From an uncultured Fibrobacterota bacterium (GTDB lineage: Bacteria; Fibrobacterota; Chitinivibrionia; Chitinivibrionales; FEN-1185), in NCBI GenBank assembly GCA_963753345.1, contig CAVWBU010000019.1, positions 86,645 through 150,644 of the forward strand: a stretch of 64,000 nucleotides of DNA, read 5' to 3'. Position 1 is the stretch's first letter. Each line of letters starts with the position of its first letter. The translations under genes and the position numbers were made by a program. Under the pieces are notes generated by a model, which was given only the letters and a program-made list of their open reading frames with translations, was not told the DNA's origin and ran no database searches. This document shows, piece by piece, positions 20,471-21,840 of this stretch.

Positions 20471-21172
20471 TCAAAATGAATAAAAAAGGTACATTGCTGT
20501 CGCAATCAGCAGGAGCCCAGCGGCAGTCCTGACGATTTTTTCCACCTTTTGCAGCCGTACAAGGTTCTTGCCGAAAGAAAGTCCGAAAACGAGCGCCGAC
20601 AGAGGAACACTAAAACCGATGGCATAGGCGAAAAGGTTAGTCAAAGCCCATGCAGTGTGTTTCTCAAGCACAGCGGCGCCGAGAATAATAAAAATGCCGG
20701 GATTGCACGGCAGGGAAGTCACGACAATGGTACCGCCGAAAATCATGCCGGAAAAACCGGAAACCAAGGTTCTCGACTTATTCCCGGATGTTATGAAAGG
20801 GAGTTTCGGGAATGCAAAGGGAAATAACCGGAGCGATGCGATGCCGAATAAGAGCGCGATGGAACCCCCGGCAATTTTCCAATATTCGCCGGAAACCCGA
20901 ATAGCCGTTTGTCCGGAAAAAATGATTACCGATCCTATTGCCATCAGTGCGGCAACCGCTCCGGCTATAAATAAAAGCGCGGATTGCAATGCTTTTTGCC
21001 GGTTATCATCCTGAATAAGGGAATATCCCGCAACAGCGCCCACGAGCGGCAATGTGCAGCATGCGCTTGCGATTACGCTGAGAATACCCAAAACAAATGA
21101 AAATGCAATAGACACAGGACCGTAGCCGGCGCTGTTGAGCATCGATTTGATTGCGGCAATAGCTTCCTGCAT
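20471..21172 (-). CDS. CcdA/DsbD-family thiol-disulfide transfer membrane protein
   Basis: 233 aa, ~6 TM helices, with Cys-bearing helices [10 protein letters not shown] and SLPCNPG as in cytochrome c biogenesis CcdA/DsbD proteins. Confidence 0.7.
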
Positions 21173-21195
21173 TGAGATCGTCTCCTTATGAATTG

Positions 21196-21840
21196 TTATT
21201 TACAAACGCGATTCCCTCCCGCCGGGCAGCATCCGGATGGCTGCATTGCAGCGATACATGCCTGAAGGAGGTTTGTTCGGGTGATATTATTTCCTGCCAC
21301 TGCGCGCATGCCATGACCCTTGACTACAACAATCACGCCTGGAGAAGGAACCTGGGTGCTCAAGGACTCGAATTCGGGACTTCCGGCTGTAAGCTGGAAT
21401 GCACCCATGCGCATGCCCTTTGCCGTAATTGTGGCCGCAGCATTGCCGATTTCCTGGGTGATGGCTTTCGTTTTCTCCGCCTCACTCTTCACCATAAGGA
21501 TGAAGACCCCGTCAAAGTTGGCCGCTAAGGTATCAAGTGACGCAAAAGACGGCAGCATGGCGAATAAAATCGATTTCCCGGTATCCCCGGCTCCCGATGT
21601 CGAATCTGTTTTTACCGGTGCCACAGATTTAAGGGAAAGTGCTGATGCATAGTTAGAAGCTGCTGGCGTTTTTGCCTGACGGGATTTGCGTACAATGGAG
21701 CTGGCCAGCACGGCACCGGCGCAAATGATAATAACGGCGAGGAGGATGACCTTTGTACGCCGGGAAAGTCCTTTTTCAGTCTTACATGCGCAATCCGGGC
21801 CGCATTGCTGTGATTCCGGCTGCTCTGTTTTGTTTTCCAC
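21196..21840 (-). CDS. bitopic Cys-rich membrane protein, unknown function
   Basis: GTG start sharing one base with the arsC stop (TAGTG). N-terminal CGPDCAC, one TM helix (VILLAVIIICAGAVLASSIV), a ~150-aa extracytoplasmic domain, and a C-terminal QPSGCCPAGGNRVCK. No family recognised. Confidence 0.55.
   Translation of the reverse strand: MENKTEQPESQQCGPDCACKTEKGLSRRTKVILLAVIIICAGAVLASSIVRKSRQAKTPAASNYASALSLKSVAPVKTDSTSGAGDTGKSILFAMLPSFASLDTLAANFDGVFILMVKSEAEKTKAITQEIGNAAATITAKGMRMGAFQLTAGSPEFESLSTQVPSPGVIVVVKGHGMRAVAGNNITRTNLLQACIAAMQPSGCCPAGGNRVCK

Follow-up and report, generated by a model that had tools for sequence, protein, structure and literature searches.

A conserved pair of membrane proteins in arsenic-resistance clusters, one with cysteine clusters at both termini and one a three-cysteine CcdA-type protein, and its possible role as an As(III) relay

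The described systems closest to the one reported here are thiol relays of several kinds. Canonical CcdA proteins contain two cysteines and expose the cysteines of transmembrane (TM) helices 1 and 4 alternately to each side of the membrane; their pairing with thioredoxin-fold clients is known from CcdA–ResA/CcmG, SoxV–SoxW and the β and γ domains of DsbD. ArsD, the cytoplasmic As(III) chaperone that serves the ArsA ATPase, has a thioredoxin fold that lacks the catalytic CxxC. In MerT, MerP and MerC, paired cysteines pass a thiophilic metal from the periplasm through a TM helix to the cytoplasm, and adjacent cysteines are typical of such metal(loid) sites, as in MerT and ArsD, and not of disulfide relays. 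CcdA proteins and thioredoxins have previously been recorded in ars operons (PMC2963123), and PMC9144182, citing Chen, Zhang and Rosen (2019), describes ArsG as a CcdA-like permease through which trivalent aromatic arsenicals leave the cell, and ArsF and ArsE as thioredoxin-like proteins. NCBIfam model NF040495 curates ArsG with the same efflux function. The DNA analyzed here (the window) is a stretch of 64,000 nucleotides from an uncultured Fibrobacterota bacterium (GenBank assembly GCA_963753345.1, contig CAVWBU010000019.1, positions 86,645 to 150,644). Between arsC and acr3 it carries adjacent genes for a 214-residue single-pass membrane protein with cysteine clusters at both termini, here called X, and for a CcdA-type protein with three invariant cysteines, here called the partner. 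Thiol relays, CcdA–client pairs and ars accessory genes are known kinds; what appears to be new, judging from sequence, is a conserved and unannotated X paired with a three-cysteine CcdA protein.

The nine conserved cysteines of the two proteins, their architecture, the adjacency of their genes, the ars context and the fusions of X to ArsD domains constitute the established part of this work. In the window the two genes lie in a tightly packed minus-strand operon of seven genes, as follows:

22300..22683, minus strand: arsR, ArsR/SmtB repressor, the operon's first gene (NCBIfam NF033788, E 7e-24, and Pfam HTH_5)
21840..22298, minus strand: arsC, thioredoxin-coupled LMWP-type arsenate reductase (TIGR02691, E 5e-43, at 146.5 bits under the curated cut-off of 174.3 bits; Pfam LMWPc above its cut-off)
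21196..21840, minus strand: X, open reading frame for a single-pass membrane protein of 214 aa (three-cysteine cluster, TM helix, linker, thioredoxin-fold domain, three-cysteine tail)
20471..21172, minus strand: partner, CcdA-type protein of 233 aa with six TM segments and three invariant cysteines (homologues with PF02683/PF13386)
19261..20460, minus strand: acr3, arsenite efflux permease (TIGR00832, E 5e-128)
18347..19337, minus strand: hgcA, mercury-methylation corrinoid protein (Pfam CdhD and an NVWCAAGKG motif)
18045..18350, minus strand: hgcB, ferredoxin with two [4Fe-4S] clusters, ending ...SGSCC (Pfam Fer4 families)

Base 21840 belongs both to the GTG start codon of X (21840-21838) and to the TAG stop codon of arsC (21842-21840), a 1-nt overlap from which we infer translational coupling of arsC and X; a Shine-Dalgarno-like AAGGTGG stands upstream of the X start. 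The partner starts 23 nt past the X stop and is preceded by AAGGAGA, and the ATG of acr3 follows the partner stop codon by 10 nt. A preliminary description of this DNA, made from the letters alone, had reported the termini of X, its single TM helix, the base that it shares with the arsC stop and the cysteine motifs of the partner, including SLPCNPG, all of which were verified. Its placing of the pair between arsC and acr3, and the CC end that it gave for HgcB (SCC), were confirmed by family matches and by the sequence.

X matched no model in Pfam or NCBIfam. A word-indexed search recovered 46 close homologues, mostly unnamed or "hypothetical" with one spurious FliL label, and an exhaustive HMMER search recovered at least 314 representative homologues from a library that carries no names. 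A profile search for distant members brought in more than 426 further proteins, none with a functional name and two with the generic label YpmB. The named relatives of X, whether close or profile matches, are all "hypothetical" or carry generic Joint Genome Institute (JGI) labels. X appears to represent an unrecognized protein family, and no match to a well-characterized family with an unrelated role emerged from Pfam or NCBIfam. The elements of X are:

21784..21804, minus strand: N-terminal cysteine cluster C13-x3-C17-x-C19 (CGPDCAC), conserved and predicted to be on the cytoplasmic side
21691..21753, minus strand: single TM helix, about residues 30-50 (helix 27-50 in the AlphaFold2 [AF2] model)
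21241..21573, minus strand: thioredoxin-fold domain, residues about 90-200 (AF2 and Foldseek)
21202..21231, minus strand: C-terminal cysteine cluster C204-C205-x7-C213 (GCCPAGGNRVC), predicted to be periplasmic

The cysteine-bearing ends of the protein, ...QQCGPDCACK at the N-terminus and ...QPSGCCPAGGNRVCK at the C-terminus, are conserved. Throughout an alignment of 34 close homologues C13, C17, C19, C204 and C213 never vary; C205 is retained or gives way to a nearby cysteine in a CGxxxC arrangement. Across the wider family, CxxxCxC is found in 256 of 284 full-length members, and 267 of the 284 have at least three cysteines within their final 25 residues. The cysteine motifs noticed in the preliminary description are therefore features of the family as a whole. 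A single TM-like segment is present in 258 of the 284; in 19-residue hydropathy windows the best segment of family members averages 2.52 and the second best 1.18.

The AF2 model of X places a compact domain at residues 90-200, with a predicted local distance difference test score (pLDDT) of about 90 and the topology β-α-β-α-β-α-β-β-α. Foldseek searches with this model returned thioredoxin-fold domains as all top matches in the PDB and BFVD, with E values of 2e-4 to 1e-2, and P167 is invariant and precedes strand β3, where the cis-proline of the fold is expected. A CxxC at the thioredoxin active-site position is absent from X and from every homologue: strand β1 is followed by VKSEAEKT, which contains no cysteine. 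A PDB sequence search with the X-family profile gave chance-level matches only, with neither ArsD nor thioredoxin among them. Both tails, and the linker of ~40 aa that precedes the folded domain, are disordered in the model, and the tails show the abundance of Gly, Pro and Ser that marks metallochaperone tails. The preliminary description had given X an outer domain of ~150 aa; the outer region stands, with its folded part reduced to ~110 aa (residues 90-200) behind the disordered linker. From the alignment and the AF2 and Foldseek results, X can thus be read as a three-cysteine cluster, a TM helix, a low-complexity tether, a redox-inactive thioredoxin fold and a three-cysteine tail. We ruled out an anti-sigma factor (ZAS) or a lipoprotein N-terminus for X, which has no HxxxCxxC and no lipobox, and no sigma-factor neighbor was seen.

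An independent line of evidence on X comes from gene fusions. Of the 284 full-length family members, 28 (~10%) have at their N-terminus an ArsD domain (PF06953, with E values as low as 1e-41), which directly precedes the CGPxCxC-TM unit, such that the X cysteine cluster is flanked by the ArsD domain on one side and by the TM helix on the other. One more ArsD–X fusion, missed by gene calling, was found upstream of the partner in a Chthoniobacteraceae genome (locus L014). The ArsD domains aligned here keep the Cys12/13/18 triad (MCCSSGVCG). Because of these fusions and the single TM helix, the N-terminal cysteines of X are predicted to be cytoplasmic and the thioredoxin-fold domain and C-terminal cysteines to be outside. 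The net charge of the TM flanks, which averages +1.97 on the N side vs. +1.17 on the C side, agrees weakly with this N-in topology. Hence the fusions support both a metalloid hand-off and the N-in topology, and they would tie the X family functionally to As(III). We found no support for the idea that the folded domain of X is itself a diverged ArsD (hhalign probability 1.5%; no match to Pfam ArsD).

The partner has six hydrophobic segments, with CCTLP in TM1 and PCNPG in TM4, both invariant. Its cysteines are encoded as follows:

21056..21061, minus strand: vicinal C38-C39, TM1 (SACCTLP), codons TGC TGC
20705..20707, minus strand: C156, TM4 (SLPCNPG), codon read from the sequence

C38, C39 and C156 are invariant in 32 partner-family sequences, down to 37% identity. 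C38 is at the position that we take to be that of the proline of a canonical PCxxP motif, in which case CCTLP would be a Pro-to-Cys replacement. Since the cysteine clusters of X and of the partner are conserved across both families, they are not due to chance.

Searches with the partner found 311 homologues, and those at about 45% identity carry PF02683 (DsbD_TM) or PF13386 (DsbD_2); the window partner itself has no Pfam match at E≤0.01. Within the 32 aligned family members, PF02683 matches nine (best E 1e-14), PF13386 six and NCBIfam DsbD 11, and 29 match the ArsG family weakly. Against the ArsG model NF040495 the window partner scores 41 bits (E 1.4e-10), failing the curated cut-off of 200 bits. 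A Foldseek search with the AF2 model of the partner, a low-confidence query (pLDDT 57), gave as its sole high-probability match the nuclear magnetic resonance structure of CcdA, 5VKV (probability 0.99, E 0.015, 226 columns, 23% identity), and a PDB sequence search with the partner profile gave nothing at E≤1. JGI labels the partner "cytochrome c biogenesis protein CcdA". The DsbD_TM and 5VKV matches uphold the earlier view of the partner as CcdA/DsbD-like, and within that superfamily it appears to form a distinct clade. We also considered the partner as a homologue of MerT, with which BLASTP gave a local match confined to TM1-TM2 (E 3e-4). This match was lost against decoys: scored with the partner-family hidden Markov model, MerT ranks 98th of 10,001 (10,000 shuffled decoys). 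Thus, the likeness to MerT drawn in the preliminary description stands as one of motif and fails as one of descent.

We compared the window with 41 related loci (L001-L041), annotated by tblastn and gene calls. The large-scale part of this sample is drawn mainly from the close subfamily, and 10 single look-ups supplied the distant contexts, so the sample of the wider family is small. The set of 32 loci informative for adjacency comprises the window and those of the non-redundant L001-L038 that have DNA downstream of X. In 30 of these 32 the partner follows X, at a distance of 17-91 nt, and the same adjacency is seen in L039-L041, outside that count; X and the partner, already presented as a pair in the preliminary description, are indeed a conserved unit. 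The exceptions are L032 and L033, which have arsR, a P1B ATPase and X without the partner, with a DGC-domain gene added in L032. All the long loci that we examined have the pair within a cluster for ars or metal resistance and never beside ccm or res genes, and in most related loci arsR heads the cluster and acr3 lies downstream of the pair. The five genome matches of the close subfamily are all Fibrobacterota metagenome-assembled genomes from fen, bog and soil, and family members are also annotated from Planctomycetota, Verrucomicrobiota and Syntrophales. As carriers of hgcAB from bog and fen samples, the hosts are inferred to be anaerobes, and hundreds of members of the pair families, annotated from four phyla, would occur in such organisms.

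Within the window's own subfamily the pair travels not only with acr3 but also with hgcAB, which is in the cluster at 16 of 17 informative loci. The genes are arranged there in three ways: arsR-hgcA-hgcB-arsC-X-partner-acr3, arsR-arsC-X-partner-hgcA-hgcB-acr3 and, in the window, arsR-arsC-X-partner-acr3-hgcA-hgcB. The linkage to hgcAB has therefore outlived rearrangement. Of the distant members (29-36% identity), two, at L011 and L038, also adjoin hgcAB. No hgcAB was present within 5-7 kb of the pair in L013-L015, L040 and L041, nor was it found at L012 and L039, where there is less flanking DNA. These seven loci (L012-L015 and L039-L041) are ars clusters with ArsD/ArsA, arsM and acr3, ArsD/ArsA being encoded in L012 and L014, and a P1B ATPase is directly upstream of X in L013, L040 and L041. 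A recurrent distant operon consists of arsR, a 58-aa GGCCGxGxxCCG peptide, a P1B ATPase lacking the metal-binding domain, X, the partner, in some cases arsM, acr3 and arsC. Because distant pairs reside in ars clusters without hgcAB, the module is best regarded as a general arsenic or soft-metal component, not one specific to HgcAB, and the hgcAB cluster of Fibrobacterota would have incorporated a general ars module.

Several of the related loci contain further genes near the pair. P1B ATPases without an N-terminal metal-binding domain are encoded in ArsR-headed operons at L013:4925-6967, L032:4935-6911, L040:5035-6963 and L041:5004-6968; those of L013 and L032 have a CPC motif and a conserved extra cysteine in the last TM helix (EAGCITVV), and in L040 and L041 the gene for the 58-aa GGCCGxGxxCCG peptide precedes the ATPase. 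Such an ATPase might pump As(III) or another soft metal and be served by these cysteine-rich chaperones. The L011 partner (7611-8392) is split by a frameshift into an N-terminal part (7611-8330) and a C-terminal part (8096-8392). On the same island as hgcAB in L011, a thioredoxin fused to a weakly MerB-like domain (1101-2387) is encoded upstream of a DsbD_TM gene, and in L012 (2799-6834) an ArsD–X fusion follows a methyltransferase, two radical-SAM enzymes (one of them B12-binding) and an RseC-like protein; these neighbors hint at organoarsenical chemistry. In the hgcAB–ars cluster of L003, the gene of an MtrA-like corrinoid-binding protein (9423-10103; NF002126, E 6e-57) is inserted between acr3 and the gene for the CcdA-like protein, giving this cluster another corrinoid protein in addition to HgcA.

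How does the pair compare with the described systems? Like the membrane components of CcdA–ResA/CcmG, SoxV–SoxW and DsbD β-γ, the partner has six TM segments and cysteine motifs in TM1 and TM4, its family includes matches to DsbD_TM, and its gene adjoins that of a thioredoxin-fold protein with a membrane anchor and a folded domain predicted to face the periplasm. It differs from CcdA in a third invariant cysteine beside that of TM1. X differs from CcdA clients in lacking CxxC and in bearing three-cysteine clusters on both disordered tails, one predicted on each side of the membrane, and the pair is found in an ars/hgc context, not one of cytochrome maturation or sulfur oxidation. With ArsEFG it shares the pairing of a membrane protein, here of probable CcdA fold, and a thioredoxin-fold protein inside ars operons. 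However, the partner is only 27% identical to the ArsG encoded in the window, a paralogue that has two cysteines (SPCPL and FCPV) vs. three in the partner. ArsF has a CxxC (CPTC) and no terminal cysteine clusters, and its model, NF040494, does not match X.

The likeness to ArsD lies in the direct fusion of X-family proteins to ArsD domains and in the thioredoxin fold without catalytic CxxC that the two have in common. The end of Escherichia coli R773 ArsD, ...PSGCCGGNTSCC, may in addition resemble the ...PSGCCPAGGNRVCK of X. In contrast to ArsD, which serves the ArsA ATPase, X is membrane anchored, with its folded domain predicted outside the cytoplasm. Finally, the pair recalls MerT/MerP/MerC in its paired cysteines, and TM1 of MerT (ILASACCLGPLV) and TM1 of the partner have in common the motif ASACC..PLV (ASACClgPLV at the Hg(II) site of MerT), an analogy of motif. 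The sites of the pair have three cysteines, not two; MerT has three TM helices vs. the six hydrophobic segments of the partner; and merA, merP and merR are absent from the X–partner cluster. Unlike in the Mer relay, the direction of transport is likely outward and the substrate As(III).

What the pair hands along its cysteines through the membrane is most likely either As(III) or reductant. As the best explanation we tentatively propose that X and the partner form a cysteine ligand-exchange relay that carries As(III) across the cytoplasmic membrane, a reading that we put forward as possible but short of probable; other thiophilic metals are possibly carried besides trivalent arsenic. The relay would begin with cytoplasmic As(III) made by ArsC, whose known function is to yield As(III), and its inner end could be fed by ArsC or by ArsD. 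The membrane-proximal C13, C17 and C19 of X would capture As(III) as a three-sulfur (S3) complex; in the fusion members an ArsD domain with its own three-cysteine site sits directly before this motif. As(III) would then move to the cysteines in the membrane core of the partner, C38 and C39 in TM1 and C156 in TM4. On the outside, the thioredoxin fold of X would dock on the partner, as CcdA clients do, and the C-terminal three-cysteine tail would accept the As(III) and then release it. As(III) would in this way be exported, or passed on to the co-encoded Acr3 or P1B pumps. By analogy, support for an As(III) relay comes from the three conserved cysteines at every station, three being the preferred coordination number of As(III), and from the vicinal cysteines, which recall the sites of MerT and ArsD; ArsG may serve as a precedent for an arsenical permease with the CcdA fold. 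The preliminary description had suggested a thiol-based metal(loid) hand-off or a reductant relay feeding Acr3 and/or HgcAB; the conserved pair, its cysteines, the CcdA likeness and the ars context bear this out in part; homology to MerT is not supported, nor, in the distant loci, is a specific tie to HgcAB.

Several considerations weigh against an As(III) relay. The documented activity of CcdA/DsbD proteins is the transfer of electrons, not the transport of metals, and no energy source for uphill export is evident. A separate As(III) conduit would be redundant since Acr3, ArsAB and P1B ATPase pumps are encoded alongside, and these co-encoded pumps favor a reading of the pair as chaperone plus maintenance. 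The AF2 model of the partner (pLDDT 57) is too low in confidence to place its three cysteines together in space. The metal specificity may be for As, Sb, Hg or Cd; the N-in topology of X is deduced from the ArsD fusions and the charge bias; and every functional statement about the pair is likewise a deduction.

The main rival to an As(III) relay is a relay of reductant, which we consider somewhat doubtful. Here the partner would move reducing equivalents from cytoplasmic thioredoxin to the periplasm with X as its dedicated client, the thioredoxin fold of X docking on the partner. The reduced C-terminal tail of X would bind As(III) or other thiophilic metals as Acr3 or a P1B ATPase releases them, or would reduce a periplasmic substrate, and the N-terminal three-cysteine cluster would separately be a cytoplasmic donor site for a pump. 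A CcdA-like protein beside a membrane-anchored periplasmic thioredoxin-fold protein is the classic textbook layout of CcdA and client, the partner's membership in the CcdA/DsbD superfamily is supported, and ars operons with CcdA and thioredoxins are on record (PMC2963123). Pumps are also at hand: most loci have acr3 directly downstream, and L013, L040 and L041 have a P1B ATPase directly upstream. L032 and L033 have X and an ATPase without the partner. Yet the thioredoxin fold of X lacks CxxC, and disulfide exchange needs neither Cys-Cys pairs nor three-cysteine sets, which metal(loid) coordination fits. Moreover, an ArsD fusion at the cytoplasmic end would have no role in a pure electron relay, and oxidation of periplasmic thiols would be a lesser problem in hosts inferred to be anaerobes. 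A role in housekeeping or structure, that is, in cytochrome c maturation, in the upkeep of periplasmic thiol redox state or in a membrane-anchored regulator with the cysteine clusters as structural sites for Zn or Fe-S, agrees with the JGI name of the partner, "cytochrome c biogenesis protein CcdA", and with the general ability of three-cysteine motifs to bind Zn or Fe-S clusters. We regard it as very improbable: all long loci are ars or metal-resistance clusters and not ccm or res clusters, the tails of X are predicted to be disordered and Gly/Pro/Ser-rich like those of metallochaperones, X lacks an output or DNA-binding domain, no neighboring sigma-factor gene was seen, and the ArsD fusions point to As(III).

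The pair could instead be an accessory of HgcAB that conducts Hg(II), or the product of its methylation, in the manner of MerT/MerP, a route in which the periplasmic tail captures Hg(II), the Cys-Cys of the TM helix carries it inward and the N-terminal cluster passes it to the CC of HgcB and on to HgcA; a reverse path could export methylmercury. What speaks for such a conduit is the presence of hgcAB in 16 of 17 informative close-subfamily loci in three gene orders, its adjacency in the distant L011 and L038, the match of the partner TM1 motif to the MerT Hg(II) site ASACClgPLV and the CC end of HgcB. Nevertheless we consider it quite unlikely. Distant pairs lie in ars clusters without hgcAB, some with ArsD fusions or near ArsA, the three-cysteine sites suit As(III) better than two-coordinate Hg(II), and the similarity to MerT is not homology. 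It is also known that hgcAB sits in ars clusters, for reasons that are unexplained (PMC7438021; bioRxiv 10.1101/2022.10.17.512643), and as hgcAB is itself embedded in ars clusters, its linkage to the pair may reflect only shared ArsR control. A composite version, in which the partner is a CcdA-fold "bucket brigade" thiolate transporter for As(III) or Hg(II) that has acquired a third cysteine within the membrane, served on both faces by X, built into the hgcAB operon of Fibrobacterota and of at least L011 and possibly a route for the substrate or product of HgcAB, seems unlikely to us, although less so than a dedicated HgcAB accessory.

The remainder of the region holds a second thiol-rich arsenical gene set. 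An ArsEFG-type set is present at 23.9-26.5 kb in the window, 3-5 kb upstream of the pair, and the genes upstream of arsR are:

26207-26467, minus strand: Thioredoxin_3
25131-26210, minus strand: ArsP permease
25041-24763, minus strand: ArsF gene (NF040494, 65 bits), carrying CPTC
23909-24607, minus strand: ArsG-family CcdA-like protein (NF040495, 270.7 bits)
23679-23900, minus strand: DUF2798 protein
23269-23646, minus strand: DGC-domain protein
22684-22947, minus strand: AhpD/CMD-like protein ending ...SCCS

Many related loci also have the AhpD-like gene, just upstream of arsC-X. Further along, the interval 26631-29321 encodes a protein of 265 aa whose C-terminal domain is PF04060 ("putative Fe-S cluster"), of a kind known from corrinoid/Fe-S proteins, together with:

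27677-28033: second arsR
28271-28840, plus strand: class I methyltransferase, divergent
28941-29321, plus strand: TauE/SafE fragment of half length

Two genes of the window are interrupted. The hgcA gene is broken into two frames by a +1 frameshift, one extra C in the C4 run at 18812-18815, which comparison with the intact HgcA of L017 (a single frame of 355 codons) places between the corrinoid and TM domains; the split reflects either a mistake in the assembly or a gene that has recently become a pseudogene. The ArsF-family gene (24601-25137, minus strand) is disrupted relative to the ArsF of L017: a stop codon lies in frame close to the signal peptide, and two frameshifts at about 24700-24786 compensate for each other. 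Taken together, the hgcA frameshift and the disrupted ArsF-family gene suggest an assembly prone to indels, which in hgcA and arsF fall in homopolymers. Neither X nor the partner is disrupted, and they are 93-98% identical to their nearest database homologues.

Published descriptions of hgcAB neighborhoods name arsR, arsC, acr3 and arsM (PMC7438021, PMC11984097, bioRxiv 10.1101/2022.10.17.512643), and in the searchable papers of this kind we found no mention of X or partner genes beside hgcAB. Our search of the open-access literature, outside of which falls much arsenic work in subscription journals, found no paper containing both "hgcA" and "CcdA". For microbiologists working on arsenic or mercury, the pair provides two named targets whose invariant cysteines can be mutated one by one. 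It bears on why hgcAB sits in ArsR-controlled arsenic clusters, on how thiophilic metals reach the cytoplasmic HgcAB and on the native role of HgcAB. Should the reductant relay prove correct, X would be a new type of client for the CcdA family of reductant transporters. If the pair is a conduit serving HgcAB, it would link the association of hgcAB with ars genes to a concrete mechanism. The ars repertoire could gain from the pair a component new to it and perhaps a new principle of transport.

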